This document shows, piece by piece, positions 10,240 through 54,700 of a stretch of DNA of 64,000 nucleotides. Positions within the stretch are counted from its first letter, which is position 1. Each line of letters opens with the position of its first letter. Where the stretch lies: assembly GCA_044892505.1 (NCBI GenBank), contig CM097883.1, positions 42,222,001-42,286,000 on the forward strand. Reading direction: 5' to 3'. A model generated the notes under the pieces. It saw only the letters and a list, made by a program, of their open reading frames with translations, did no database searches and was not told the origin of the DNA. Both the position numbers and the translations under genes were made by a program. This DNA is from Schmidtea nova (taxonomy: Eukaryota).

Positions 10240-10780
10240 CATAATTTTATGAAGTGATCCATTTAAACAAATAAATATTTATGATTTATTAGCTACACTA
10301 CACTTGTATACTTGTACTTTAAATATTTTCTATACCAAAAAGAGTTTTATTTAATAAAAATTGTTATAAAATATTACAATGTAAAACCATAGAAACGTTA
10401 TCTTTTGTATAGTTTAAGGACTGTGTATGTTTGTGTAACATTTGTAACTGTATGTAATATTATTACATACAGTTACAAATGTTACACAAACATACACAGT
10501 CCTTAAACTATACAAAAGATAACGTTTCTATAGTTTTAAAAGGTCGTGTTTTAATACGTAGGATATAAGGAGTTACTAGGGTTGTTTTACTCAAAATATT
10601 ACAATTTTTACCACAGTCTACCATTTACGACAACTTTCAAATGCGTTGAGCATACCCTAAATGTGCACAGATCTCAGCCATTTTTGATCAAAATAGTTTT
10701 CTAGTAGTGCAGTACTAGATAAGGGGGTGAGAGGTGATAAAACTTAAAAATAAATTTTTTTCATACATTTAAGGACCACC

Positions 10781-31438: not shown

Positions 31439-31753
31439 CTAAAAATGCTAAAGAATATCAACAAATTAATTTCTTATTTAGCTACTAGCAAAATTATATA
31501 ATTTTAAAATTTTAAAATTTTAAAATCTTGCATATCGAATGATTTAAACATTGTACAACACGTTTTGGAAAAAAAATAATTATATATATTACGATAATTT
31601 TATCTAAATTCATTAATTATAATAACAGAAATAAAATAATTTTTTTAAATGTTTTAATATTGTTGCGTTGTTATATTAATTATTTTAAATTTACTAATTT
31701 TCTTTGATTTGTTTATTTAAACTATTTCATTTGCATTGTTTTTAATAAATGTT

Positions 31754-32179
31754 ATGAAGTTACAAATTGTTTGTGTAATTCTTTTTCTTAGCGTTGTCAA
31801 TTGCAATCCTATAACAAAGGTATCGGATAATGAAGACAATTTGATTTACGACTCTAACCAATCTCATTCACAGTCAAATCATGAACATTTTGTGGTCGAT
31901 TTCGGTCAATTAATCACTTCGGATTCTAAATTGATGAAAGAACTGTCGAATTTGTTAAATGAATTTGTAAAAACCCCATCAACTGAGTTGATTAATCAAA
32001 TCAAATTAGAATGGACAAATTTCAAAGCTAAATATAAGAAAATTTACAAAGATGTCAAAGAAGAATCTCATCGATTTTTGATTTTCTTAAAAAGTTATCT
32101 CAAAATAAAGCAACACAATTTGAAATTCGATGCGGGAACAGTTAAATTCAATATGTCAACTAATCATTTATCTGATCTA
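31754..32179 (+). CDS. Cathepsin L-like cysteine protease, first exon (signal peptide plus I29 inhibitor prodomain)
   Basis: MKLQIVCVILFLSVVNC signal peptide; WTNFKAKYKKIY..VKEESHRFLIF...IKQHN...FNMSTNHLSDL (ERFNIN/GNFD-like); GTGAGT donor at 32180; no catalytic exon found in the window. Confidence 0.85.
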
Positions 32180-32899
32180 GTGAGTGTTATTTCATTTATA
32201 TGAATCATGTTTAGGTAATTAGTTTTCTTTTGGTGGACATGATTTTCTTTGCTAATTTTTCTTTTTATATTATATTTCACTATTTCTACTTTTTCATGAT
32301 AAATAAAAGGTATCACTATCATATTTTATTATAAATAATGTTTAATAATATTAATGATCAATAATTAATTATTTAAACACTTTTTCAAAAACAATACGAT
32401 GGAACCGCTATTAATAAGCATAATTCGTCCCATAATCTTCCTCGTAACGTAGATTACTCGTTAATCGAGATTCCACTGTACATATAGTTTGTTCATATAT
32501 ACGAGATTGAATGTCTGTCACACAAAGCGCGCCCAAAATCGAAATTCTAGGACCACAGAAATCTGCATTGTCAATATTAGTTTAATACATAAAATAATAC
32601 AAAGCTTCAGTAGTATCTGCTTATTATCAAATTCGAAACATCCTGTTAGGAACACTTTCAAATATTTATTCAAACGAATTAAAGAATCTAAATTCTTTCA
32701 ATAACCGAAATCAGTTTTCACTGTTTCAATTTTTATTTTCATTAATATTTAGAATTGATATAACAGTTAATTGACTTCCACAAACTAGATTGTTAGTTTC
32801 CCATTTTTATTATGTTAGAATATGCGGTTTTATCTCTTATAGTGAAACAACTGTTTTGTTGAATCACGAGATCTCATTGTTTGTTGATAAAGATTAGCT

Positions 32900-34100
32900 G
32901 GTATAAGTATACAATAGGGGGGCCACTTTTTTTTAATTAAATTAAATAAATTTTAAATTATAATAAATTATTAATTTAATAAAAAGAGTATAATAAAATA
33001 CTTATATATAGGGAAGACTATTAAGTCAGTTTTTATTTAAGTTAACGTTACACAACACTTAAATCATATCGTTGTCTTATTTGATCAATCAATATATCAA
33101 ACGCTCGCTCATTTTGACAAAACCTTCTTCTCCACATGAATTCGTCGAGGTACGAAGGAATGAAGCTACATCGTGTCCCAAACATATACTTAAATTTTCG
33201 TTTACACAACGCCCACGAACCTTCTATTCCGTTGGTGTTAACGCCGGTAACGGGATCAATGAAGTGTTCCGAGTGATTCACCCACTGGTGTACATACGGT
33301 CCCAATTTAGCTAAAGGTGTAGGGGCATTTGGGTCTCGTCTGGGACCACCAGTATAAGTAGAGAATTCATCAGTCCAAATAGTCGTTCCCGGGAGTACAA
33401 CACGCGAAAAAATTGGAAATATTTCTTGTTGAGTCCTATTATAAACGAACTCGAAGTGTACATTCTTCGTAGTACAGTCTATAATTCCGAAAACCCAACC
33501 ACTGCGTGCATTCCCTCTCGGTTCTCCGCGATTATGCATCAAATTCATAAATTTCGATTCATCCGCTTGCACGATATGATCAACTCCACCAAATAGTAAA
33601 GGCTGAGAAACCAACTTCCAACTGGCAATATCTCTAAAATACTGGTACCATTGAATGATAGTTTTTTTTGAAATATTAGTAAAAAGCTGAACTTGTTTAA
33701 CAGAGCATTCCGCGCCCCAAAAATACATTAGTAGGAAAAGATCACGAATATGTAATTTGGAATTACAAAAAAAACTCCCGGTTGTAATTGTTTGTTTGTT
33801 GCGATGCGGATTTACGTGTGACCGACTACGACAAACAAATATATATTCATTTACTACTTTTGAATCTTTTACAAGTTTCATAATGCGTCCGCAGTTTGAG
33901 CAGGTGGGATCGGCTCGTAGCAAACCTACTCTTTGGAAATGTCTTATTAAAGACAGTGTGTCACGCGAAAGTTCATATATTTGTTGTAAATTCATGGCTT
34001 ATGATATATTTTAAAATTTAATTGATTATATTTATATTTATATATTTAAATTTATTTAATTTAATTAAAAAAAGTGGCCCCCCTATTGTATACTTATACC
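32900..34100 (-). mobile_element. Merlin (IS1595/ISXO2-like) DNA transposon, apparently intact
   Basis: ~50-bp TIRs starting GGTATAAGTATACAATAGGGGGGCCACTTTT (one indel); perfect 8-bp TSD GATTAGCT (32892-32899, 34101-34108); single uninterrupted ORF. Confidence 0.96.
33048..33995 (-). CDS. Merlin/ISXO2-like DDE transposase, 315 aa
   Basis: CSNC zinc ribbon, HTH, VQADES (D), IWTDEFSTY (D), VNHSEHF.DP.TGVNTNGIEGSW (E), YLDEFMWRR. Confidence 0.95.
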   Translation of the reverse strand: MNLQQIYELSRDTLSLIRHFQRVGLLRADPTCSNCGRIMKLVKDSKVVNEYIFVCRSRSHVNPHRNKQTITTGSFFCNSKLHIRDLFLLMYFWGAECSVKQVQLFTNISKKTIIQWYQYFRDIASWKLVSQPLLFGGVDHIVQADESKFMNLMHNRGEPRGNARSGWVFGIIDCTTKNVHFEFVYNRTQQEIFPIFSRVVLPGTTIWTDEFSTYTGGPRRDPNAPTPLAKLGPYVHQWVNHSEHFIDPVTGVNTNGIEGSWALCKRKFKYMFGTRCSFIPSYLDEFMWRRRFCQNERAFDILIDQIRQRYDLSVV

Positions 34101-34165
34101 GATTAGCTACTTTAATTATTTTATAAGACGGCGGAGATTTACTCTCAAATGCCATTGACGATGTA

Positions 34166-34790
34166 CAGGGTTATGCAATTCTATATTAACATGTATACAA
34201 TTCTATATTAACATAGATATAAAATTTATATTTTTATTGAACGAATTCTTAAACACCAAAAATAAAAATAAAAACTTTAAATAATACTTTTAATTAGATA
34301 AACGACTCTTTTTGTTGTGCTTTTTCAAGCCACTGTCTCATATTCCTGTAAAAACCTTGGCACTGTCAAGAATAATTATTTTCTGGCGCCAAAATATTCT
34401 CTAAGCATCCTTCAATAGATGCATTAGAATTTAGAATTTTTTGCTCATGATATTTATTTTTTATCATTGAAAAAAAATTCTTCAATCGGGTTAAGTTCTG
34501 GCGAGTATGGAACCAAAAGCTTACACACAATTCTATTTTGCCTAAAAAGTTCTTGAACAGAAATTGATTTGTGGAATTTTGCGTTATCCATAATTAGAAT
34601 CTTATTCGGCTGAGATCTAAAGTAAGGTATAAGCTGGTTTTCAATGAATTGAATAAACGATTCTGTGTTGAAAGCTCCAACTTTAGACTCGTAGCTGATA
34701 ATTCCATCAATACCAATTGCACACACTAAAAAAATCCAAACCAAAATCAATGCACTACGCTGGGTCACCGCGAAGTCGCAATCGCGCTTC
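34166..34790 (-). pseudogene. IS630/Tc1-family transposase 3' relic
   Basis: LIMDNAKFHKS...LLVPYSPELNPIEEFF; CCCTG|TA-type end near 34166. Confidence 0.8.
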
Positions 34791-35365
34791 TAGCTAACGC
34801 TATGCAGAAGTAGAATTTTTTTGTGCTTCAGGGCTGAATAATTATATTATTAGAGGTAAGTACGTTTTTTTATAATTTACTATAGACAATATCAAACAAT
34901 TATTGTCACTTATGAGGCGCCAAATTTTTATTTTGTCCGGGCGCCGTTCAAGCTAGAGCGGGCCCTGTAAGTTTTTTTATTTATTTTTTTGTTTGTTATG
35001 AATGTATATTGTCAACTACAAGTTCTTCATTATTTGAATGTTTATTAAGTTTAAATACAATATTAATTACGTATTTTTTACAATAGATTCAACGATTTTT
35101 TAGTTTTTGACCTTTTCAACGTTTTCTTCAGGCATCCGCTTAATCTTAATCAAAAAGTGCTTCCGAATTGTTACAAGTAAGTAATTTTTTAAAATTTCTT
35201 ATTGTTGCATATACATACTCAGATTTAATCAAAGAATCACGCAACGTGTAGATTATCCGCCAATTTATCTACATCCTGTATATTAGAATTGTTTTTAAAT
35301 TCAATATTCAATATTTTATGATTAAAACTAGGTTATATATTTTTTTAGTTTTCGGCTTTTAGATG

Positions 35366-37590
35366 CTTCCCAAAAAACTCCGGTTTTCAAAATCGCATGC
35401 GACAGGCAACGAGGGAAGTAGAACTTGAAAAACAACGAGGCAACATTATAAAGTTCTTGATATCCAAGAATGATTCATCGGCACCTTCAGAACCACACAC
35501 GTCACCTGACAAGATCACTCAGAATATTTTAAAAGATATTTCTGAATCTACAATTCCGATATCTGAAATCAACCTAAAGGATGTATCTGAGGCACCTGAA
35601 AAAGATGAAATTGCATTAACAACAGAAGATTCTGTTAATTCAGAAAATGCATCAGCATCATCACCAGATTCTCTAAACTCTGATGATTTCCACATAATCG
35701 ACACATTTGATAATACAGCTAATATTCCATCTGTACTTTCTTGTAACGACATCGGCTATTTAGAGTTTGACAAGATATCACAACGTTTGATAATTTCCCA
35801 ACGACTCAAAGACGAATTGGTAGAGCGTGGATCATCTGCATTTCAAAAGAAAAATGGTCCATTTGAATTTCGCGATGGACGTTCAATGCATTCATCTTGG
35901 TTCACCCGCCGGCTGGCTAATGGAGATGAGATAAATCGAACATGGTTGCTCTTTTCCCCATTAAAAGTTGAGCATATTGCTTCTGTTGCCTATTATTTTC
36001 AAAGTCACTTAACAATCAGCGCTCTGGACTTACGTTGCCAGAAGGTTTCAACAAATGGAGAAAGCCAGAAAAAATGTCTGAACATGAAAATAGTCCAAAC
36101 CATGGCGCTTTATTTACTGCCTGGAAAGAAGCGGAGTGACGGATTATGTCGGGTAAGGGAATCGATGCAGAATTGCAAGCCCAAATACAAAATGAAAAAC
36201 AAAAATGGCGAGATGTTCTGAAACGCTTACTTAGTTGAGTAAATTTTTAGCATTTAAATTTGGCATTGCGAGGCCATGCAGAGAGTTCTAACGTTGGAAA
36301 TTTTCTTGCTACTCTGAAACTTTTAGCTGAGTATGATCCTTTACTTTCTAACCACCTTGATCATGCCAGACAAAATCCGGGATCTGTATCATGCTTGTCA
36401 CCACAAACCCAAAATGAATTTATTGGCTTACTAGCGTCGAAAGTAAGAAATAAATTACTAAATGACATCAAGAGAAACAAATACTATGCTATTTTGTTTG
36501 ACAGCACTACAGATCAAGCTCACCGCGAACAGTTATCACGCGTGATAAGGTATGTCGATGTTGATTTTTCAAACAAAACTGTGACTATTAAGGAATCATT
36601 TCTGAGCTTTATTGAGCTACATGCTAAAGATGCAGCCACTCTTGAACATGTTATTGTTGACACCCTTGAAGCCGATAATTTACGTCTGGATGACTGCAGG
36701 TCGCAATGTTATGACAATGCTGCTGTAATGAGTGGGCATATATCTGGGCTTCAACAAAGGATTTGCAATAGAAATCCTCGCGCAATATTTGTGAATTGCA
36801 ACAATCATAGCCATAACTTGGCAGGTATGCACTCAGCTAAGCAGGATACTGTTGCTGTTACATTTTTGGTACAATCGAGAGCATTTACCTTTATTTCTCA
36901 TGTTCCACACTTCGATGGAACGAGCTTAAAAATGTAATCAGCAACACTGTTAAGCGAGAATGTGAGACCAGATGGAGTGCTAGAGCAGATGCGGTCAAGG
37001 CTGTGCATAATGAAGTAAACGAAATTGTAGGGTTACTCGAAAAATTGTCAGATGATAACAGCCAGACTCAGGACACAAGGGCTGATGCCGAAAGATTGCT
37101 AATTTGGCATCAAATTCTCGGTAAAATTGACCGAGTCCAAAAACGTTTAAAGGACCCAACAGTAAACTTCGGGGAAGCAGCATCAGATCTGCAATCTTTG
37201 GAACTTCATCTCAATGAAGTGAGATCAGAATTATACGAAGAAGCCATTCAGAAAGCAAAGGATATGTGCAGTAAATGGGGAATTGCAGTAGAAAGCCGAG
37301 TCAGGCGAAGAAGACGAATGGCGGGAGAAATGGCACGAGATGCGGGACTTTCTTCTGAAGAAAATATTAACAGAATAATGAAAAGTATTATTGATCGCTT
37401 AAAGGCAAAATTTCAAAAAATTCAAACGACTTCAAGACTTTAATTTCAAATTTGGCTTTCTGCTTAATATTAATAATTTATTAAGCATGAAAAATGTCGA
37501 TTTGGAAGAAAAATGTTTGAATTTAGCAAGCTTTTATGACAGCGACGTAAATGGGACGGAGTTGTTCAACGAAATTTGCGATACTAAAAT
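35366..37590 (+). pseudogene. hAT transposase (ZMYM1/TTF-zinc-finger type), decayed
   Basis: RTWLLFSP, LALRGH, FDSTTDQAHREQLS, QCYDNAAVMSG, CNNHSHNL, TRWSAR, RRMAGEMARD, DVNGTELFNEI across frames. Confidence 0.9.
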
Positions 37591-38060
37591 AACAAATAAC
37601 AAATTTGTTTTTGGTTCAAATTTTCTCTGAACTCAATCTACGAACCTTTTTCAAAATATCGGGAGTGTTATATTACCAGAAATTTAAAGATAAATTACCC
37701 TATTAGCTATTTTTTTATTTTAATTTTGAAAAAACTTACGTCTGGATTTTTCGGGGGCAGAAGAAAAAATCAAGATTTCTATGATCCTTAACAAAAAATA
37801 GTTTCTAAATTTCATTCAATAAATAATATATGTAAATAATTTTTTTACTTTGTTTTTTCGGCACGGCACGCATTAATGTATTTTATATTAATTTATACCG
37901 AAAAAATGTTTTGTTTAACGAGATTTTCGCGTTACGAGCAACATTTATGAACGAATTATGCTCGTTATGCGAGGTTCCACTGTATAATAAAATATATAAA
38001 AATATATAATAATAAAATAATATTTTAAAAAGTAAACAATAAATATTGTTTATCACTACA

Positions 38061-38396
38061 TTAAAAATAAATTTTTCTGGCTTTTACTGCCGCAAATGTA
38101 TCAATGACATCATCAAAATTAATACAATCAAGAGTGTCGCGTTCCTCGCTTAAGAGTGCAAGACTATCCAAACGTTCTTGACCTATAGATGCCCGTAGAT
38201 AGGATAGTATTAATTTCAATTTTCTGAAAAAGCGCTCACAGCTTGCAATTGATACCGCAATCGTTAATAAAATTTGCAGCGCAATTCTTAAACTCGGAAA
38301 GACATCCTCACCATACAATACTATAAACTTCAACAAATCAACTGGCGATGATAGCGAAGTATCACATCTTTGCTGGTGTGTTGGTTTGATGGACAA
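38061..38396 (-). pseudogene. hAT C-terminal dimerisation domain, inverted relative to the 35.4-37.6 kb body
   Basis: VFPSLRIALQILLTIAVSIASCERFFRKLKLILSYLRASIGQERLDSLALLS...FAAVKARK. Confidence 0.9.
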
Positions 38397-38758
38397 CTGA
38401 GATCATTAAGATTTTATATGTTAGGGTGATCTCGCCAACATAAAAACATTCCCCCGCTGACACCCATGATGTATCCCTAACTACTCATCATGTTGGTGCT
38501 GTGTCAACGTTGTGAAATGACAAGGCAGGTGAGCAACCTTGCGGCTACTATTCCCTTGTTTATTCACGGGTCCACCACTACCGATAGAAGGTGTCTGTGG
38601 ATTTCTTTCGGTCCCACTTATGCTCTTTCCTTTTGCTCTAGGGTAATTTAATTTCAGCGCCTCTGCAGTTTTAGATGAATCCGGGTTTTTAGTTACATTC
38701 AATTCTCAGACATTCCACAAACAAACAAGACAAGACAAATCATTCGTTTACAATACAT

Positions 38759-39358
38759 TTATTTATAGTTTAATAACACTGACGGTCTAATCACATTTAG
38801 GAGTTCTTGTTCAGATAGACCACTGAGCAAGTCTACTTCTATTCCTAGGCGATCCGCATACGCACGTCGCTCTCTCCGCTTTTTCGATCCGAGGCGATTC
38901 CTTCTCTTCGTTCGTTTTGAGCCTGCTGGAGTTCTCGTTGTCGACTCGATCGTCGTGATTGCGACTGCATCTGTTTCCGTTTGGGTACTCGTAGTTACCG
39001 ATATCGAGTCCACCCATCGGTTAAAAGTGCTTGCCCGGATCACTGGGTGCAATTGCTCGGTAATAAATTCCTGGGTCGATACCCTCAAGTAGTTCGAGAG
39101 CTCCATCTTTAGTGCTGCTACCTCTCTAGCTTGTTCGTCGACTGTTCGTTCCGCCCGGTATCTGGCTTGTAGTATGGCCTTAACCCGCTCTGGGTTAAAC
39201 CACGTGGTTTTAATCCGCTGATGCTCGTCATTTAACTGTCTTAAACGATTCTCCAAAACTCGTGAACGCGCCTTATGTTCTCGCGCCTTTTGCTTGTACT
39301 CTCTATCTTTGGTTTCGTTCATGTCTGTAAATATAACCTCAATTATGGTATATGTCAT
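38759..39358 (-). CDS. Orphan protein, 199 aa, N-terminal coiled coil and basic C-terminal patch
   Basis: Uninterrupted, GC-richer ORF; stop overlaps AATAAA (38758-38763); RSRVLENRLRQLNDE heptads; KRTKRRNRLGSKKRRERR NLS-like stretch. Confidence 0.6.
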   Translation of the reverse strand: MTYTIIEVIFTDMNETKDREYKQKAREHKARSRVLENRLRQLNDEHQRIKTTWFNPERVKAILQARYRAERTVDEQAREVAALKMELSNYLRVSTQEFITEQLHPVIRASTFNRWVDSISVTTSTQTETDAVAITTIESTTRTPAGSKRTKRRNRLGSKKRRERRAYADRLGIEVDLLSGLSEQELLNVIRPSVLLNYK

Positions 39359-39510
39359 TTGTCCGGTCTTTCAGTCATCCTTTCGTTATTAAACAACTAT
39401 ACCACATCATCATGATATTCTCATACGCTCGAAACCAAAACAAGACCATTCTCACACAAATGCATTTATTTTTATATTTACAACAAACATTCTTTCTCGG
39501 GCTGTGTCAA

Positions 39511-40146
39511 TCAACTGAATGCTCGCAATTCCTGGTCGGCAGGATTCTCGTCGCGACGAATTCCGCTTTCCAAATACATCTCTGGAGCTGGGTTCCAACT
39601 CAACTTATCTCTGTAGGTAAACACCTCCCAGAGGCGAAGCTCCTTGGGCTCGGGGTGTTGATCTAATGACACGCTTCCTGGCGCGTTGGAGTAGGCGAAG
39701 ACTTCCTCAGTGTAGCGACACCGAGGCCTGTCTAGCAGCGTGTATCCTAGTCGATATAGAGCCCTTCCCGTCAACATTCCAGTGCTCAATAACCAACGGG
39801 GTCGTTTCTGCTCATCGAGGAATTGGTAGAACCATCCGTCGGTTCTTGGGTCGGCAGGGGCTAAGGTGGACGTCCAATCGGTGTCTCCTTCCCATCGCAG
39901 TTGTATAGTGAAGGCGCAGGCCGGAATATCGGCGGCTGCACTCATATGATTTCTTATCCACCGGCGTAAGTGTCGGCGTGCAATTTCGCTAATTCGGCGG
40001 GGGGCTTCCGTTTCTCCCTCGATGGTGGGGTTCCTCTTTGGCCGGATGACGGAGCGGGTACGCCGTCTTTTCCGGATGACATAATCCTCCACTTTCATAT
40101 GTCGCGAGTCGATCAGATCCTTTTGATATTTCTCGATTTTTATCAT
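39511..40146 (-). CDS. Orphan protein, 211 aa
   Basis: Uninterrupted ORF with GTATAAATA ~55 nt upstream (40201-40209) and AATAAA at 39465-39470; basic N-terminus RKRRRTR, Trp-rich core. Confidence 0.6.
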   Translation of the reverse strand: MIKIEKYQKDLIDSRHMKVEDYVIRKRRRTRSVIRPKRNPTIEGETEAPRRISEIARRHLRRWIRNHMSAAADIPACAFTIQLRWEGDTDWTSTLAPADPRTDGWFYQFLDEQKRPRWLLSTGMLTGRALYRLGYTLLDRPRCRYTEEVFAYSNAPGSVSLDQHPEPKELRLWEVFTYRDKLSWNPAPEMYLESGIRRDENPADQELRAFS

Positions 40147-41126
40147 GTGACTGAATACAAGAGCTAGGTTAATGTGATAGATTTGTCGGGTGAGTGTAAT
40201 TATTTATACCCGTCGACCTACTCGACTTAATGGTAAAACGCTGTAGGCCTTGGTAGATCGGTTTTCATTTTTACTAAACCAGAGACGGTAATGTAGTATG
40301 GGTCGTGCATTATGGTTTAGTGTAGTAGACTATTCTACTCTGTATTTTTATTCAACTAGTTAACCACGCTCAATTGATTTTGGTCGTTACTGGATTAGAT
40401 TTATTTTTGTTGTTCATCAACTATGTACACACGACAATTTCTCACTAGGAGACGCTATTACCAACTACCAAATTTACATTTGTTTTCCATTCATCACACC
40501 CATTCTCTCAGTCATGCTCTATGCCTGGACAACACGATTGCCTATTCATTTTAGTTTTACATCAGCCACACTCAGTCACTCGATATTTTTATTTGAAGAA
40601 CATCCTCGTTAACTAACGATGGTCATGTCATAAGGGGAATATCGACAATCCCTTACTCAAGTTGGGTTGATGCTTCTGGTATGATCGTTAACTAATTGGT
40701 GGGGTTGACCTTTTGTGCCCTTCGAGGGTCGCATGTAGGTGTTGGAATACCTGGTTGATTTATATCTCGGACCCAAACACTTTGGTCTCTGAACTCACAT
40801 GACTTATGTATGGTGTATTTCTACCCTCGTCAGCGCTCAATTTATCCGACTTGATGTTGTTTATCGTGATACATATCCTCTATACAAGGCTATCGCTACT
40901 TTAATCGACTTTACGAACGCTGGATACCCTATTGATCTATTAACAAGCCTGTTACGTGTACTCATTTACTCGATGTCGTCGTGACAGATAATGCATCCTT
41001 CGATTACTTTTACTCATACTGATGTTACGAGGGTATCGGACATCCTATGTGCATTTGTCCCCCTTCCGTTTACTAAATTTTTAGGAAACCTATGGTCCCG
41101 CCGCATCAGCACCTCACATGAAAATG

Positions 41127-41750
41127 TGTTGCGCTGAGAGGCCCAAGAATCCGTCAGGCTGTCAGGCCTCCGGAAAACCTTATTGATTTTAAGATAGTTA
41201 TAATTATGAGGGTTTAAAGTAACAATATAACACACAACAATTACCTTTTATTTTTCCTTCAAGTTGGATTTACAATGTTCTCAGTGCTCAACTGCAAGTT
41301 ACACTTGGTAAAATAACATTGACAAATACTGATTTGACTTCAGTATTTATACTCAACCGGTGTTGTTGGTTAGCCAATCAGCATCGAGTATGTGTGTATG
41401 TTTGCTTCATTTTTTCATGTTGTCGGCTTTTTGCTGCCTAACTTAACTCACTGATTTATTTGTTTAATCATGCGGTAAGTTTTTCTTTGTCATCAATTTA
41501 TTTTATTTTATTTTTGTTTTAGATCTTCGGTGACATCCGCCCACGCGCTGTCATATTCAGATTTTATCTGCTTCGCATGAGTGAGTTTTTGAGTTTTATT
41601 TTTGTTTTGATTAATACCTTATTTCTTTTAGATGTTGCCGCTTATTTGCTACTTTTTTAGCTGGTAATTTGTTTTATTGTTATTTTGTGTAGCTTTATTT
41701 TATTGATTGCATATTATTTTCAGATGCTGCTCGATTTGGCTGGCCCAACA
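41127..41750 (-). mobile_element. LTR-like family B copy 1 (624 bp, TGTTG...CAACA)
   Basis: Starts TGTTGGGCCAGCCAA at 41750 and ends GCGCAACA at 41127. CCAAT box 41374-41378, GTATAAATA 41344-41352, AATAAA. Sequence after the end resembles that after copy 2. Confidence 0.8.
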
Positions 41751-42726
41751 TCTTGTTATTGTGGGGACAATTGGGGTGCCTGCTTATGTAATGTAGGGTT
41801 TACAAAGATATTAATGAAATTAAACAAGTTTCAAACAAATTTATATCAACAATTATATTATTATAAAAATTGTATTTAGAGAAAATTAACAATCCAAAAC
41901 CACGAAAAGTTACTTTAATATTGGTGAGATATTTCTTTTGACTCTTTGAATACTCTTTTAAGATCAGCTCTCCGACAATTAATTTCCGACAATTATTAGT
42001 TTTGTAATTTTTTTTAAAAAAATCAATTTTCTTATTTTGTATATTTTACTATAGTTTCATTCTATAGTAATTTAAATATTTAAATTCTAAATTTAAATAT
42101 TTTAACCATATTATAAGTAAATTATAATAATTAAAATACTTAAAATAATTAAAATACACCAAAGGGGGGTACAATGCCTTTACAATAGTAGTAACAGATA
42201 ATAATAAAGATTAACAACTCATTACAATATATATATATATATATATTCAATGAAAACTGAAAACTGTAAAAATAATTTAACAAGATATGACCTAACTATA
42301 ACAAGAAAACTCATTTTATTTATAGAGCTCGTTGCAAAAAATGAAATTTTTGTTGAGAGCGCTCAGACTCGAGTTTAGAAATAATTTTCAGCTGATTATG
42401 TCCCAAATAAATTTTTTCAGCTCAAGCTTTCTCTATTTTATTTTAGACAGAAATGCTCGAGCTAGCTTAATAGGGTAATTTGAGCTGTCAGCTCTAGTTA
42501 TATTTTTGTGCCTTCGCAAAAGTTTTGAAATATTATGTTTAAAAATGCGCAATAAATAGAAATACATAAAATTCGTTACGAATTCGAACTATTAAACGAA
42601 TCATAACATTTTTCGGAACGACTACTAAAATGGTACAATGTAATAAATTCCGGGATTTTATTTGTAAAATACTGATTAGCCTCTAGAAGGCGTTAATTGT
42701 TGGTCGTTCATCTTTTCCGGTGCTTA

Positions 42727-42837
42727 TCATGTGGCTTCGTACCGCCGGCACCGTTGACCAAACTTCTTAGTGAGCTCGTCATTTCGGAGCTTGAATCGGC
42801 TCATGCGCTTATACAGCTTTTCCAAGGATTTCTCCAT
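42727..42837 (-). CDS. Small spliced orphan gene (36 aa) with TATA box and 5'UTR intron
   Basis: TATATAAG at ~43056-43064; GAG|GTAAG donor at 43004; TTTCAG acceptor ending at 42845; AAAAATGG start context; MEKSLEKLYKRMSRFKLRNDELTKKFGQRCRRYEAT. Confidence 0.5.
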   Translation of the reverse strand: MEKSLEKLYKRMSRFKLRNDELTKKFGQRCRRYEAT

Positions 42838-43257
42838 TTTTAAACTGAAATAAAATTAAATTATAAAAATTTAATAATGATGCAATAATGAACCCATAAA
42901 CTATATACAATATGTACAATCAAACAGACAAAGCAAACCACTCAACCAAAATTCAAAAGCAAAACACAACAAACAATAAATATTATAAACGAAAAATCTC
43001 TTACCTCGGGTGCAAAATTTTGATAAAAAGTAAAATTGGTAAACTTGGTAATTTACTTATATAAACTGGAGTGGGACCTTCTGGACCACTAATACCTGAC
43101 TAAGTAATCGCGCGACAACCCCCGTTGGTTAAGGTCTCGTAAATAGATATAATTAAATCTTTGAAAACGTGAGTTTTTGGTATTGCTATCATCGTTTCGT
43201 ATTGTAATATTATTGACAACAGGCAACTACAAAAAAAATTATAATATGAGATTACTG

Positions 43258-44190
43258 TTACGCTTGGTGGTGTAATTGATCAATATAGGTCGTTGTATCG
43301 TATATATGAATTTTGCAATAGATAGCATTTTTTCTGGCATCTGTCCAAGCAGGATTAATAATATTATCCAATTCGTTTCCCAGTATAATTCTTGGTAATC
43401 CGGCAGTTATGATACCTGTTCCACATTTAACATTAGAGAAGTGGTGAATTTAGTGTCACATAAATTGATGAGCTCCTCGGGTTCCCATTTATGTAATGGT
43501 AAATCATCAATAACGATTCCGTCGTATTGTTTCTTTTCTGGCCCGAGCTTTTCAAAATCTCGCCCAATACTTATGTGTAAAGGGCTCGAAAAATGTGACA
43601 GTGCATAATTTGTTTTACCGATTCCAGTAGCCCCGACCATAACGACAGCGCGCTCTTCAAATTTACAGAATGGTAAACACCAGTTTCGTTATACTGTGGC
43701 TTAGTAACGATACCAATTTTCCTATTGACATAAATATTAATTATTTGAGCAAAATAATAAATAAATATGTCACTTTATTAAGCATGATTCTAATTTTTGG
43801 CTCATTCGAATAATGTCTAGTGGTTTCTCATTCTCAACCATAGCAAGGCCTTCTGATATCGCATTAGACTCTAAAAACTTTGTCAAAAAATCCTCATCGG
43901 CTAATGGACGTTTACCGTATTCCCAAAAGTGGCCATTATCCACAGTAGACAATTTATTACGTCTTTATACTCAAATCCGAATACATAATTAAACTCATAT
44001 TTTTTATGAATTGCCCAGTACGTTGACGAATTGTTCAATATTAGCATGCATTCCATGTGGTCATGACCTCCCGAACTTATCTCTTGTTTCATGAGCACAT
44101 ATTTGCAAGTTTCTTTTAATATTACTTGCAAACTATCTTTACGTCGTAAATAATCCGACGTAGGGATCGAAATAGTTTTAATCGCTTTCT
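43258..44190 (-). pseudogene. rep: Endogenous CRESS-DNA-virus-like Rep (HUH endonuclease plus SF3 helicase), gemini/genomovirus-like, frameshifted
   Basis: KYVLMKQEISSGGHDHMECML (motif II context, HDH at 44057-44065); YC..DNGHFWEYG (degenerate motif III); Walker A GATGIGKT (43611-43634); Walker B DGIVIDD; NVKCGTGIITAGLPRIILGN (B'/C); stop at 43258; at least 3 frameshifts. Confidence 0.9.
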
Positions 44191-44199
44191 GTTAAGAGC

Positions 44200-44961
44200 T
44201 GCTCGTTTTGCTTTGTCTTCGTTATCTCCATATCCTGTTTGGACTCGTCCTCCTACAACTGCTGTTTCTCCGCCAGACAATTGACTGGGAATATGAGGCC
44301 CATTTTCCTGAGAAACTGGTCGGTGAACACCACTTTGCAGTTGATTCTGGGGCAATTTGTTAGAGCTAGCCATTGTAACCTCTGCCATATCAGTATGAGT
44401 AATTCCGGCGCTAGATATAGCTGGCTTTCTCCGCATATTGCTTGCACATTATTTGGAGTATTGTCGAATACCTTCCGATGTTTAAGTGAATCAATATCTC
44501 TTGGAGAAGTTTCTCCAAATCCACCCAGTTCGTCGATCCGAGTAAGATTTTTGTATTTCTTTTTCTCGGAGTTCCGCATTCTGGGGCCGGGTCATCATTA
44601 TAACGTCTATCAATTGGGCTTCCAGCATTGCATTGATACCTTCGCTTATTTTGTGCTCCAGCTCTAGCCTGTTGACCGAATACAACTTTGTATTAATAAA
44701 CATTACGAAATTGATATACGGTCACCTTTTTGGCATCACCATGTTCGGGTTTATCCCTCGGATCTGGGCCACGAGCCTCGGGGGTATGGAATTGAGTATC
44801 GTTTCCGACTCCCTCAGAATCTGGAAGGGGGATGCGAGATAATATTTCGTCCACTGAGTCGTCAGTCCAATCGTCCGGAAATTGAGACACCATTGTGAAC
44901 TTGCTTCCCGTATATTCATTATTTCTTCGTCCTTTAGCTTTATCCTTTCCTCGTCATTCAT
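44200..44961 (-). pseudogene. Frameshifted orphan ORF immediately upstream of Rep
   Basis: Overlapping minus-strand ORF pieces (44722-44961, 44693-44893, 44491-44703, 44253-44579, 44122-44436) in GC-richer DNA; no family recognised. Confidence 0.45.
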
Positions 44962-45507
44962 TGTCAGTCATTGGTGAATGTTAAAATGACATTCTGTTGC
45001 AGTATAAATACAGGGGTGAGAGAGAGAAAATCATTTACATGTCTTGCAATTTTGCTTACCCGGATAGGCCAATCATACGCTCATGCACACAACAATGCAA
45101 AAATAATAAAAATAAAAAAAGCTTCTCTCGGACCGATTTCATTTCTCCCGGCGAGAAATAGCTAATCACCAATTCCATAATTCTCCTTTTTAATTCCCCA
45201 ATAAGTTCCTTCTCCGACGACATGATGACCTTTAATAAAAATACAGCATTAATCTCATCTCCGCTTTCTGACCCGATATCTTAAACTTTTACAGGTGGAC
45301 TCGCGTTTCCACGACGGCAACTCTACTACCCCTCTCGATTTCCTCTAAATTTGTCTCAGCTCATTTACTCTACTTTCTCATTCTCTGTATTTTTTATCTA
45401 GACTCACCCCCACCCCAGAAAAATATATAATAAGTTGACCATAATAAAAATAATTTAATAAACTATCATAGACAAGAATCAAACTCAGAATTTCAAATAC
45501 ATAACAT

Positions 45508-46032
45508 TTATTTTACGCTATGACAGGTCAAGAACAACTACGATAAGTCCGAAATGAACCAGTTCTCCGCATTTCCCGATCGACACTTATCATTCCTCGA
45601 AATTTGGACTATATGGAGACTCGGTAGGGCATGTGCTGGAGTAAGGTCAAGCATGATCCGACCCAGACTCCATAACTCTTCCTGGGGAATCGTCCCCAAT
45701 TAGTAAATTCGATTACGCCCTGGGATCTCGGTAGGTGTTTCTACAAAGTATGATGGTAGATCGGCTGGGTACTTCCTATCGACGTCGATTGACCACGTGC
45801 TACTCCCGTGCCATATTATCGTGTCGGGACTGTCTCGCAATAAGCTAAATGGCGGGACAATCCCATCTTTTTCGAACACCTACTGATGTTCCGATAGAAT
45901 TTCGCCTGCCAAATTTGGGGGTATATTTTTTACGGGTACTGCCATCACCCAAAAATTATCTTCTGACTTCGGCCCTTCCTCGTAAAATGAATCAACTCGA
46001 TGGCCATTTATGCTTATACAGATTCGCTCCAT
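45508..46032 (-). pseudogene. Orphan 175-codon ORF relic with three in-frame stops
   Basis: MERICISINGHRVDSFYEEGPKSEDNFWVMAV...; single frame with no indels; final TAA overlaps AATAAA (45507-45512). Not in the ORF track. Confidence 0.55.
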
Positions 46033-46068
46033 CTCTTTAATTTATTTACTACAATATACAATATGAGG

Positions 46069-46141
<73 letters not shown>

Positions 46142-50099: not shown

Positions 50100-53000
50100 C
50101 TGGGAGATATTAAAACTCAATTTATGAATTTATCTATGATGGTCGATGAAAGTCGGCTGTCAAAATCTTATTTTTTTATTGGACGTGAGAAGTTAAATTC
50201 ATCTAATTAATTAATTATATTGAAGGAAATTACTATAAAAGCGGAAAGCAAACTCTAAAATTTTCCAGTTCGCAATCAAAGTCTTTAAAAATGATAAAGC
50301 TAGTTATTTAGATTGATCAGAGTAATTAGAGACTAGATGAGTAAAGTGTGATCAAACAACTTATCCAGAGGAACATATAGAAAGCGTACCAGAAAAAAAC
50401 GATTTCCCGATGAGCTACTTACTTTGAAATGTTGTTAAAATTTAAAGTGTTATAGTGGCAACGATTGCAGTGAAATTTAAATAAATTTATTGTATTTGGG
50501 TATTGTTGTATTTTGAAACAGAGAGCATATCGAGTCAGAGCTTTGATACTGACTTTCATAAAAAACTACCTGAAAACGTAAGTATTCTAAGCTATCCTAA
50601 CCAGGGCCGTGTCTGGGTATATGGCCGCCTGCGTGCTAGTATGCATGGCCGCCCTTTGAGATAACATCAAAATCAAAGAAAAAAATCAAATTTTCATTCT
50701 TAATTTTTTTATTATACTTATATATCTAATGTACATGTACATATTACCATTGAATATAAAACATTAATATGTTTGGCACATCTATAAATCTATGATATTA
50801 CAATCAAAAATTTACTCTACGCGATTTTTTAGAGGCAAATTCTTCAATCGCCCCTTCAATATTTAAGGAATCAGCAATTTCACTTTCAATTGCAATAATT
50901 GATATATTACTGAGACGTTCTTGAGTCATTGAAGTTCTCAGGTGGTTTTTGATTATTTTTAATTTTGAAAAACTTCGCTCTCCAGATGCAACAGATACTG
51001 GAACTGTCAGTAAAAGTTTTAAACTTGTGACGACATTTGGAAAAGAATTCTCCAAGTTGTATTTGTATTAAAACTTTATGAGTTCTTCGGGCTGCTTTCT
51101 GTCTTTTATGATAATTTTTAGAGAAATTAACTCTTGATATAATTCTACGCCACTAATATCACAAGATTCACCATCTTTAAATTTATTATGGAGATCGAAA
51201 CAACTTTTTTTTATTTCCTCATGTTCCATATCAATAAATTTGTATAGAAATCCAAAACATTGTTCGAAATTTGACAAAGTTTCAAAACGGGTGGTAAGAG
51301 ATGAAATATCTGTATCTAGTATTACATAGAAAAAATTAATTTGAAAATGTTCTTTTGGAGTAAATTGAATATCTTCATCTCCTTCATAGCTAAATTGTTT
51401 TCGGTGATGTCGGCGACGTACACTAATTTCAGCAGGAAAATCCGGTTCTGTTTCAAGTGCTTTACAAAGTTCATTAGAAATCTGCAAATAATTTTCGAAA
51501 CTTTCGTCATTTCTAATGCTTTTGAAAAATTTCAAAACTTCCTTAATTGATTCAGCACACGAACTGATATTCCAAGAAACTTTCTACATCATTTTGCTAA
51601 TAAAATCTACCTTTTCCAAGATTTCGTACCATATTATTATTGAAGAAATAAATTTATAAGATTTAGGTTTCATTGCCAAACATTCAGCTTCATGTCGAAC
51701 TGTTGGCATTGAAGATTCCTCAGCTATTTCTATAAGGCTGTCATAAATTTCACCTAATTCATTTCGCAATGGTCTAATTGCTTTAATTCTTGCTTCCCAT
51801 CGAGTTTCACTAACTTGTTTCAATGTTAAAGATTTTACATTTTTCTTTAAAACTTGCCATCTAAATGGTGATCCACTGTAAAAGTTGTATATTGCAGATA
51901 CATTACTGAAAAAATCCACCGTTGAAAACGAAACATTAGCTGCATCATTAATGGCCAAATTTAATGTATGCGCGTTGCATGGCATAAACAGAGCTCGTGG
52001 ATAATTTTCCAAAATTCGCTTTTGCAATCCTTTATGTTTTCCGGACATATTAGACCCATCATCGTATCCCTGGCCCCTCATATCGTTAATATTTAATTCA
52101 AGATAGTTTAACTTTTGAATTAAGAAGTCGTAAAAAGATTCTCCAGTACAATTTTCAGCTTGATAAAATCCAATGAAATTTTCTCTTACTTCAACTTCAT
52201 AATTTTTAATATCTACATACCTAATAATCATTGTAACTTGCTCGACATGTCCAGTGTCCGGTGTACAGTCCAAAATGACTGAAAAATATTTTGCCTCTTT
52301 TATTGATGTTAATATATATTTTTGAATTTGGGTTGCAAGGATAGTGATTATTTCATTTTGAAAGCGATTTCCCAGGTAATGTGGCATGTGGTTCTTTAAA
52401 GCGATTGGTTCTTGTACGCGTTTTATGTGGTCTGCCATTATATCATCAAATTTTCCTATCATTTCAATTGCTTTCAGAAAATTTCCATTATTTTTTTCGT
52501 ACAATTTGCTGGAAGAACCTCTAAAAGCTAAACACTGTCCTGCTAGAAATTGTACCACAGATATCATGCGCCTGACAATTTGACACCATCGCTTTTTCTC
52601 GGCGTCATAATACCGTTGCATATTCTTATCAATTGTAGTTTTTCTTTTTAAATTTAATTCCAATTTTTTCCAACAGGTGCAATTTTCGATGTGCAGCGAT
52701 GTTTTTTCGTGACGAGATAAGTTGTCAGATATGTGTTGCCAATCGTTGAAGCCTTCATTAACTAATTTTATTTCTTGTTTGCCAAATAATTTACAACAGA
52801 AGCAAAATGTGGCATCATTTTTTGGAGAATAGATTAACCACTCACGATTAAATTTTTCACCATTTGGCAGTTTTCTATAGAAATAAACCTTTGAAAATGA
52901 TCTTCCAAATTCATTTAGTGGATATGTAGATTGTATATTTTGAATAGGGCCTTTTTCAATTAAAATATCCAGCATTTTATTAATAAGTGTTCAAGGCCAG

Positions 53001-54700
53001 CAAGCTGGATCATTTAGTTCTATACACATAGCAAAATATTCTTCATCAATTTCAGTGATATCGTCGATATTTGTAACTGCAATATCTCCTATTTCATCAT
53101 TACTACTAATATTGTCATTATCATTTGTATTTTCGGCAGATAATTCATTTTCATTGGAAAAAAATTCACTGCTTGGATTTGCTTGGCTACTGCAAGCATT
53201 TTGCATTTCTGGAGGTTTTTCCAAATATTTGGTTAGTGAACCAAAGATTTTTTTAGCAACATGTTGTTTTTCTTCTCGCTTTCTTTTATACTGTGCTCCA
53301 GACAATCTTTTCGTTTTTCTTCCAGTCATTCTTATGCCTTTTACTAAAATGTTTAAAAATATCAATAACGATTTATAATGAAATTAATTTATTATAAAAT
53401 TAAATTCATTACCTTTTTCAACCTTTTGTAACAAAGCGTTGGGTGAGGCGGTGAGGGAATCTGCCCAAGCGCTTTCCGAGTTCAAATAGGGTTTTATTGA
53501 CACGCAGCTGAGACGCTTGCCGTGCTATAGACAGACAGGTAAATCACATATTATAACACACACACACGCGCGCTCCCAACTTACCTACGCCATAGAGCGC
53601 AATGATAATGATTACAATTGACGAATTGACGACAACACTCAACTATTTGACAATTTACTTTAATTATATATGACTATGACTATATATTAACATTCTTATT
53701 TTGCTTTTTAATTTTTTTTTGTTTTTCTGGTCGTCAGGCCGCCTTTTAATTTGGCCGCCTGTGTGCGGCGCACGTAATGAACGCCGGTCAGGCACGGCCC
53801 TGATCCTAACCAGGAATTACCGTTCATAGTCAACACTGAACAATATTTCAAGAAGAAAACAACGAAAAACAACCCATAACTTTCTTTTTAAAGAAAATTA
53901 AAAATACTCCACATTTGATAGATAGTTATTTGTATTACACGATACGATCAGACACTTTCAATATTTACTTAAAGGAAATGAATTCGAAGTGTACACTGAT
54001 CACAACCCGTTAAGAAATGCTATTAATAAAAACTCTTCACCGAGACAAATAAGACAATTAAATTATATTTGACAATTTAATTGCAAAATAAAATATATAG
54101 CGGGATCAGCTAATATAAGTGCAAGAATCGAAACCCATATTAATGTACTAAATTTGCTACCAATCATAGAACTAGAAAACTCCAAAACAAAACAAAACGA
54201 TAACAGAGTTTCCAAAGATTAACTCACTCAAACTGAAGGAATAAACGGGATCTGGTATGACACATCAAACCACAACTATGAAAAAATCATCTTACCACCA
54301 GAATTCCGTGAACACTACCTACAAAAATACCACAATACCTATCACTCATGAAGCATAGCCACATACTAACTTTTACAAACTAAAGTCGTTTGGCCTTTAA
54401 TGATAAAAACAAGCAAACAAACTAAAACCAGCAAACAAGATCGCAAAACAAATCCATGCCTATAAAAGAAATTTCTGCAGCAAAGAAATGCAGAAAGTTA
54501 GAACAAAATTGGTTCACACGATATGGTTGCCCAAAAACACTAATCAGCGATCAATTTGTAATAAATACAATATCACAAAAATTTGAACTGCATATAACCC
54601 ACAAACAAAAAGAAAAGTGAAAAATTGCATTGATCAATAAAACAATCAATCAGAACCAAAAAAAATTACCAGAAATTTTGACAAGCAAAAAATTTTGTAC
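50100..54700 (+). pseudogene. Gypsy/Ty3 pol relic (RT-RNase H-integrase) split by a hAT insertion
   Basis: LLYLGIV (RT, ~50490) before the hAT; IRHFQYLLKGNEFEVYTDHNPL and IKYIAGSANI (RNase H) and PPEFREHLLQKYH (integrase N-terminus) after it. Confidence 0.7.
50602..53802 (-). mobile_element. hAT transposon (ZMYM1/TTF type), full length, 3201 bp, transposase with ~3 frameshifts
   Basis: TIRs CAGGGCCGTG; perfect 8-bp TSD ATCCTAAC (50594-50601, 53803-53810); ORF pieces 52991-53332, 51584-52975, 51068-51535 and 50804-51055 (DCTPDT, QGYDDGSNM, PCNAHTLNL, ETRWEAR, ASGERSFSKLK). Confidence 0.97.

Follow-up and report, generated by a model that had tools for sequence, protein, structure and literature searches.

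The locus analysed here raises the question of how a gene for a replication initiator (Rep) of viral type came to lie in an animal genome, and from which kind of replicon it derives. The window, i.e., the whole stretch of 64,000 nt from Schmidtea nova (assembly GCA_044892505.1, contig CM097883.1, positions 42,222,001 to 42,286,000), was originally predicted from its letters alone to hold a fossil geminivirus- or genomovirus-like Rep, or alternatively an HUH transposon, from a lineage infecting this animal. All positions are relative to the first letter of the window.

Motifs and reading frames of the Rep remnant

The protein strings quoted in the original prediction are all present. Six-frame reading combined with a string check places them on the minus strand within 43297-44190, spread over three frames:

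44104-44042, minus strand: KYVLMKQEISSGGHDHMECML string
43940-43914, minus strand: DNGHFWEYG string
43634-43611, minus strand: GATGIGKT, i.e., Walker A
43523-43503, minus strand: DGIVIDD, i.e., Walker B
43434-43420, minus strand: NVKCG string
43404-43375, minus strand: AGLPRIILGN string

Rep similarity ends on its 3' side at 43297, and likeness to other copies from the same genome (discussed below) reaches upstream to about 44980. Within this range, the following parts are distinguished:

44256-44980, minus strand: upstream overlapping frames, broken, one extending the N-terminus of Rep and the other 'Alt'-like (77% nt against copy L108; 35-40% aa against copy L118)
43955-44190, minus strand: endonuclease part of Rep with motif I region and motif II (H-M-E) (profile E 8.2e-17; 77% aa against copy L135)
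43945-43955, minus strand: site of a 25-nt gap, motif III (YxxK) lost and frame shifted (DNA alignment of 5 copies)
43773-43949, minus strand: last part of the endonuclease domain together with the helical linker/oligomerisation region (PEVE Rep is the top match among 152 stored proteins, 43% over 60 aa)
43722-43773, minus strand: intron-like stretch of 52 nt, GT-AG, A+T-rich (similarity to other copies resumes beyond)
43437-43720, minus strand: SF3 helicase with Walker A and Walker B, frame break near 43688 (profile E 1.3e-29)
43297-43434, minus strand: SF3 motifs B'/C, 3' of the frame break near 43435, ending abruptly at 43297 (profile E 1.3e-11)

A profile of 11 intact relatives, compared with 994 frames of the window, recovered all four natural frame pieces (E 1.3e-29, 8.2e-17, 1.3e-11 and 1.2e-5), and the best remaining frame reached E 0.38. 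Since the four pieces are far ahead of that next frame, the likeness exceeds chance. The search with Pfam profiles that had been proposed as a check was of no use, i.e., nothing relevant was found for 4/4 pieces.

Motif definitions were taken from the accessible part of PMC6668415. Motif II of the window Rep reads H-M-E and not H-x-H, which contradicts the parallel to geminiviruses drawn for this motif; among 129 relatives, the column of the second ligand holds Gln in 111 and Glu in 4. The motif III column holds Tyr in 126/129 relatives, and intact relatives read YxxK there. At this place, the DNA alignment of 5 copies reveals a 25-nt gap in the window copy where three close copies carry sequence. 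Because the gap spans the YxxK position, the catalytic motif III is missing without a remnant. The 'YC...DNGHFWEYG' string formerly taken for such a remnant is none, since its YC lies in a different frame.

Frame breaks are located near 43950, 43688 and 43435, with a likely fourth near 44170 (motif I region). The shift at 43722-43773, on the other hand, is due to the intron-like stretch: its 52 nt have GT-AG ends and 83% A+T, and other copies are uninterrupted at that place. Judged by these features, it was presumably spliced as an intron. The dual upstream frames of the window are broken as well and conserved with L108 and L118; low pS in both of them fits dual coding. No significant match to PEVE was found for the upstream frame.

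The open frame and the catalytic Tyr of an active HUH initiator are absent in the window copy, and the breaks are confirmed in run contigs. Given the absent catalytic motif and the broken frame, the copy is predicted to be dead, i.e., inactive. Domestication as a host gene, or a function as an antiviral locus of piRNA type, might still be considered, since the five Rep-like pieces contain about 270 codons without a stop codon and the intron-like stretch is of the spliceosomal type. However, several frame breaks, the loss of motif III and the 3' truncation are at odds with a retained function, and related viral elements have introns too, such that we regard this explanation as very unlikely.

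Presence in the chromosome

The locus is placed inside a 456-Mb contig of the assembly. We compared positions 42947-45149 of the window with contigs from 4 sequencing runs, which belong to one study that is possibly the source of the assembly itself; no single record spans the whole 6.5 kb. For 3/4 runs, 0 other letters and 0 gaps are observed, and the fourth differs solely at its end, outside of Rep. Depth over Rep is 11, 15, 54 and 16-22 compared to 12, 16, 53-55 and 13-16 on unique flanks, while an LTR-like part of the window reaches thousands in the same 4 runs. Both junctions are bridged by at least 31 letters in 2/4 runs. From the exact contig match and the flank-like depth it follows that the breaks in Rep are real and that the piece is single-copy. 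The remnant is thus a genuine part of the chromosome, which upholds the earlier claim of an integrated sequence; that its source lineage infected this animal is likely.

We also considered that the locus might be an artefact of assembly or viral DNA from contamination, and its frameshifts long-read errors. The breaks are indels and not stops, and long-read errors can look alike. Yet the identical contigs are of short-read type, the junctions are bridged, the depth (11-54) is that of the unique flanks (12-55) and the place is inside the 456-Mb contig, all of which makes this reading exceedingly improbable.

Limits of the element

Both ends of the element adjoin pieces of dispersed repeats:

42698-43296, no strand assigned: flank outside the element, taken from the interior of a dispersed repeat that is unrelated to it, adjoining the 3' end of Rep (78% against L109 and L110, both of which continue without Rep)
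45120-46072, no strand assigned: flank outside the element, part of another dispersed repeat that is broken off in its interior at 45120, with (TA)n at its end (77-91% against L107 and L111-L117)

The two repeats are mutually unrelated, and the ends of the element adjoin internal cut points of both. Neither inverted terminal repeats around the element nor a hairpin or defined end at this copy were found. Within the window, there is no capsid-like or NS1-like match, and no capsid family was matched by Pfam among the 20 window frames scanned. A single 7.6-kb element covering 38.4-46 kb was considered and rejected: 38360-41750 is a high-copy LTR-like repeat, and the nearer flanks are the two unrelated repeats.

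Placement of the Rep

Two trees were computed, both with LG+G4 and no mixture model, using part of the stored relatives and part of the gemini-/genomovirus-like contigs (94 and 46 rows). The latter are IMG/VR contigs without names that were picked by motif. Among the 13 other copies of the window's subfamily (subfamily B, see below), 5 are represented in the helicase tree and 0 in the full-length tree. Within the helicase tree (94 rows, 132 columns), the window, the 5 subfamily B copies, the metagenomic Rep P0160 and PEVE are grouped with a support of 100/98, and with the sister family A of the same genome at 99/90; geminiviruses and genomoviruses are set apart by a long branch. The full-length Rep tree (46 rows, 313 columns) joins the window with P0160 (99/94) and both with PEVE (100/99). 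The tree placement recommended in the original prediction leads away from the geminiviruses and genomoviruses.

The placement was also examined with AU tests and profiles. For the full-length Rep, a grouping of the window with geminiviruses and genomoviruses is rejected (p 5.1e-5), while it is not rejected for the helicase alone in a 39-row subset (p 0.32). A profile of 65 begomovirus-like Reps yields a best E of 0.26 among the window frames and a profile of genomovirus-like ORFs 0.025, compared to 1e-29 on the PEVE side. The genomovirus N-terminal profile has no match in the window frames, and PF00799 (the catalytic domain of Gemini_AL1) has none in 4/4 Rep pieces. The Reps of Geminiviridae and Genomoviridae share with the window the order of HUH and SF3 domains, as distant relatives do, and form a separate clade to which PF00799 and a His-x-His motif II belong, in contrast to the window with its H-M-E and no PF00799.

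A fossil of a geminivirus, a genomovirus or a close relative within Geplafuvirales could, beside the general motif likeness and the helicase-only AU result, draw on a weak Gemini_AL1_M match of the family A Rep (E 1.5e-4, below the cut-off) and on a stem-loop with tip TAATATTAC. The latter is found at 44102-44132 (plus strand), i.e., opposite to Rep, with a 9-bp stem and z -3.8, but was picked post hoc. It lies within the Rep coding region and is unconserved, i.e., missing from the closest copy L135 as well as from every other place among 446 loci. Of the NANTATTAC sites surveyed (183 in 928 kb), it alone has such a stem of at least 7 bp, one long palindrome aside. The stem-loop is likely due to chance, and with the full-length AU test, the profile values and motif II all pointing elsewhere, the proposed affinity is largely refuted and has hardly any probability left.

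The more general claim, i.e., an HUH endonuclease with an SF3 helicase of the type found in ssDNA viruses, is upheld by the full-length tree and by the fold matches of P0160 to CRESS Reps. Helitrons and Replitrons are, like the window Rep, HUH-type enzymes in eukaryotic chromosomes. According to the accessible part of PMC10288648, Helitrons combine a Y2 Rep with an SF1B helicase, while Replitrons have no helicase and carry short terminal direct repeats. The window in contrast joins a Y1-type Rep and an SF3 helicase in one protein, with the SF3 Walker A/B/C layout and no such ends, and the Pfam scan matched no Helitron family; it differs from Replitrons by its helicase and by ends that are cut points in other repeats. 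A grouping with Helitrons, which had been named as a refuting outcome, does not agree with this SF3 layout, the CRESS-like fold of P0160 or the Pfam result.

Relatives outside of this genome

The top named relative is the PEVE Rep (43-53% identical on the window pieces), in accordance with the earlier pointer to it. P0160 is closer to the window than PEVE (44% over 177 columns), shares its His-x-Glu motif II and has YxxK intact. An alignment-based fold of P0160 reached a pLDDT of 94.8 (single-sequence fold: 29.6), and the first structure matches of this model are the Reps of redondoviruses, nanoviruses and circoviruses. In BFVD, CRESS Reps including that of PEVE were matched, and a search of the Atlas with the PEVE Rep returned Cressdnaviricota Rep clusters. 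P0160 lies on a metagenome contig (L443:1710-3560) inside a non-LTR retroelement with no capsid gene beside it. Since a retroelement of the S. nova genome (L034) shows 49% likeness to it, the contig likely stems from an animal genome.

A word-free protein search with the family A Rep yielded 979 relatives. Word-based searches gave no match for piece C of the window Rep among longer proteins (76 candidates) nor for the family A Rep (613 candidates). Sequence search of PDB returned weak P-loop matches only, plasmid and phage collections gave no match, and no relative of P0160 was confirmed among viral contigs.

Our statements on PEVE rest on contig L147, PMC3198968 and database names. Like the window, PEVE has a Rep that is preceded by overlapping frames, within the same clade (100/99). 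It differs in motif II (H-I-Q), in its 243-nt inverted ends and in divergent, capsid-like ORFs, one of which matches the long ORF of family A. On the same contig, an apparent upstream exon with motif I (L147:3548-4231) is absent from the deposited PEVE Rep of 272 aa. PEVE is reported not to be integrated, and PIVE is described as its integrated relative in a planarian, based on parvovirus NS-like sequences (PMC3198968, accessible part).

The accessible parts of PMC11071296 describe a group of parvoviruses with an auxiliary CressRep beside NS1. Among them is Parvo6041 (Parvovirus dugesia6041, BK066653) from Dugesia japonica, a linear genome of 5710 nt with VP, Cah, Alt, CressRep and NS1. As far as its record is accessible, its CressRep matches the window by eye in 25/35 positions around Walker B and 21/30 in the linker, i.e., about 70%, with a motif II (His-Ile-Glu) of the same His-x-Glu type; the Alt frame resembles the upstream frame of the window in a comparison by eye only. 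Both have a CressRep with His-x-Glu, an overlapping frame (Alt in Parvo6041, putatively so in the window) and a flatworm source. Parvo6041 has in addition VP, Cah and NS1 on its linear genome, while the window holds a broken, chromosomal Rep region only.

With flatworm viruses of this Rep type already deposited, the novelty implied by the original prediction is not supported. PMC11071296 also lists, in its accessible parts, endogenized planarian parvovirus contigs ('uParvo schmidtea endogenized'). Both these and PIVE resemble the window as integrated PEVE-related elements of planarian genomes; they are known here by description and not by sequence. We found no paper describing endogenous copies of this Rep subfamily in the open literature, including the accessible parts of the PMC11071296 supplements; the accessible parts of PMC13055364 and PMC9241645 add nothing on this Rep.

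Related copies in the same genome

On DNA level, the window Rep finds 1 place only, i.e., the window itself. The helicase piece identifies 59 places in the genome (75 candidates, all scored), which form two groups, and the P0160 Rep has 77 matches. One group, subfamily B, comprises the window and 13 other places (L033, L042-L048, L108, L118, L129, L135 and L138), all of which are broken. In 7/7 comparisons of the window Rep with 6 subfamily B copies and P0160, pS is 0.83-0.97 and pN 0.13-0.31. Saturated synonymous sites together with low pN imply that the copies diverged as working genes under selection and decayed later.

In some copies (L129, L046, L118 and L043), a GT-AG intron-like stretch was also observed 3' of the motif II region, which is exactly absent in the window and L135. 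This pattern indicates intron gain or loss within the lineage.

These copies bear on the HUH-transposon alternative of the original prediction, here in the form of a capsid-less, Rep-only rolling-circle transposon or a satellite segment derived from such viruses, which would copy itself via Rep and a 3' hairpin. Capsid or NS1 matches are absent beside 13/14 subfamily B loci tested (three of these loci cover just about 3 kb), and the sole match, at L033, is part of a neighbouring family A unit. Furthermore, 4/9 inspected copies end 150-250 nt past Rep in a common TGTAATG...CATTACA inverted repeat, the intact P0160 is capsid-less and within a retroelement as well, and intron positions vary among copies. 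On the other hand, the DNA search reveals no close copy of the window Rep, and saturated synonymous sites are unlike a transposition burst. Only 1/4 of the 3' hairpins folds better than shuffled sequences (z -3.0; others -0.65 to -1.2), the window copy has neither hairpin nor defined end, and the 3' end gave no non-autonomous family (3 places only). Finally, this Rep type occurs alongside a capsid in Parvo6041, as far as its record is accessible. We keep this alternative as an improbable one with little support at the window locus itself.

In the sister family A, the Rep frames are long and open and are accompanied by a divergent ORF of 1066 aa with PF08398 (E 2e-12) and by a Parvo_NS1 ORF (E 2e-13). 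Inverted ends at both sides were found for 3/19 loci examined, with units of 6054-6097 nt and without evident target duplication; the ends span 190-238 nt with 90-97% identity:

L032:403-6456, family A unit
L036:1063-7159, family A unit
L123:634-6690, family A unit

Among 9 copies of the family A helicase region, 35/36 pairs are 67-89% identical and one pair 98%.

PF08398 has at least 138 matches genome-wide (among the best 150 of 208 candidates), which far outnumber the Rep places; none is in the window. Many of them are open frames of 440-480 aa. Given this excess and the many open frames, another abundant family of parvovirus or polinton type is likely. At four places (L041, L111, L117 and L122), the family A Rep or flanking repeats are located in or beside long ORFs of the DNA polymerase B cluster (PF03175, E 9e-22), which are likely polinton-type elements.

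Origin and significance of the locus

At 43297-45119, the chromosome carries the broken region of a Rep gene. We are confident in reading it as a likely fragment of a linear ssDNA virus of the PEVE/Parvo6041 kind, which had planarians as hosts and probably reached the germ line through integration of an imprecise, repair-type manner. The CRESS-type Rep of the PEVE clade, which such hybrids carry, is present in the window. Since capsid and NS1 are lacking on the element, we file it as a fragment derived from this kind and not as a whole member.

In the source virus, the HUH-type domain of Rep would nick the origin, with the motif III Tyr cutting and the metal being coordinated by His together with a second ligand, which is likely Glu in this subfamily, while the SF3 helicase would unwind the DNA. 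Beside Rep, this virus would carry a capsid gene of parvovirus type and a short helicase resembling NS1. As neither the window nor 13/14 subfamily loci show a capsid or NS1 match, the capsid-coding source is deduced from relatives; the whole layout of Rep, PF08398 ORF, Parvo_NS1 ORF and inverted ends is seen in family A of the same genome. The fragment may have been captured imprecisely into the germ line, or a larger insert may have been trimmed later by neighbouring repeats.

Our verdict on the locus is hence a dead fragment from a group of parvovirus-CRESS hybrids that is known but has received very little study. As a single dead locus it carries little weight alone. Through germ-line integration, it links a CRESS-type Rep lineage without classification to flatworms as its host and points to a genome-wide record of a group that joins parvovirus capsid, NS1-like helicase and CRESS Rep, which can be used for dating the group and for asking how such genomes integrate. 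More interesting as a lead is the surrounding family, whose unit-length copies have inverted repeats at their ends.

A wider reading, which we put forward as speculative and rather doubtful, takes the locus as a single record within a large archive that planarian chromosomes keep of an unclassified family of linear parvovirus-CRESS hybrid viruses. This archive would comprise two or more deep Rep lineages, of which one has His-x-Glu and varying introns, and unit-length, inverted-repeat-bounded copies that are 10-30% apart and have long open frames. Integration of whole genomes via their own Rep would then be normal in stem-cell-rich flatworms, and the lineage with the Glu motif may have yielded a capsid-less mobile element.

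Neighbourhood within the window

The LTR-like repeat at 38360-41750 is of very high copy number, with at least 150 matches for each of two ORFs, many of which are paired 26 kb apart. Its open frames of 203 and 230 aa match no Pfam family over the cut-off. It resembles the giant planarian retroelements and may be the one named Burro.

The regions 31721-38402 and 51068-53383 are an ordinary neighbourhood rich in transposons, i.e., they contain a cathepsin propeptide exon (PF08246), an IS1595-like DDE transposase, a DDE_3 piece and broken hAT transposases. At about 10395-10535, a perfect palindrome with 67-bp arms is centred near 10465, which is possibly a foldback or hairpin-ended element.
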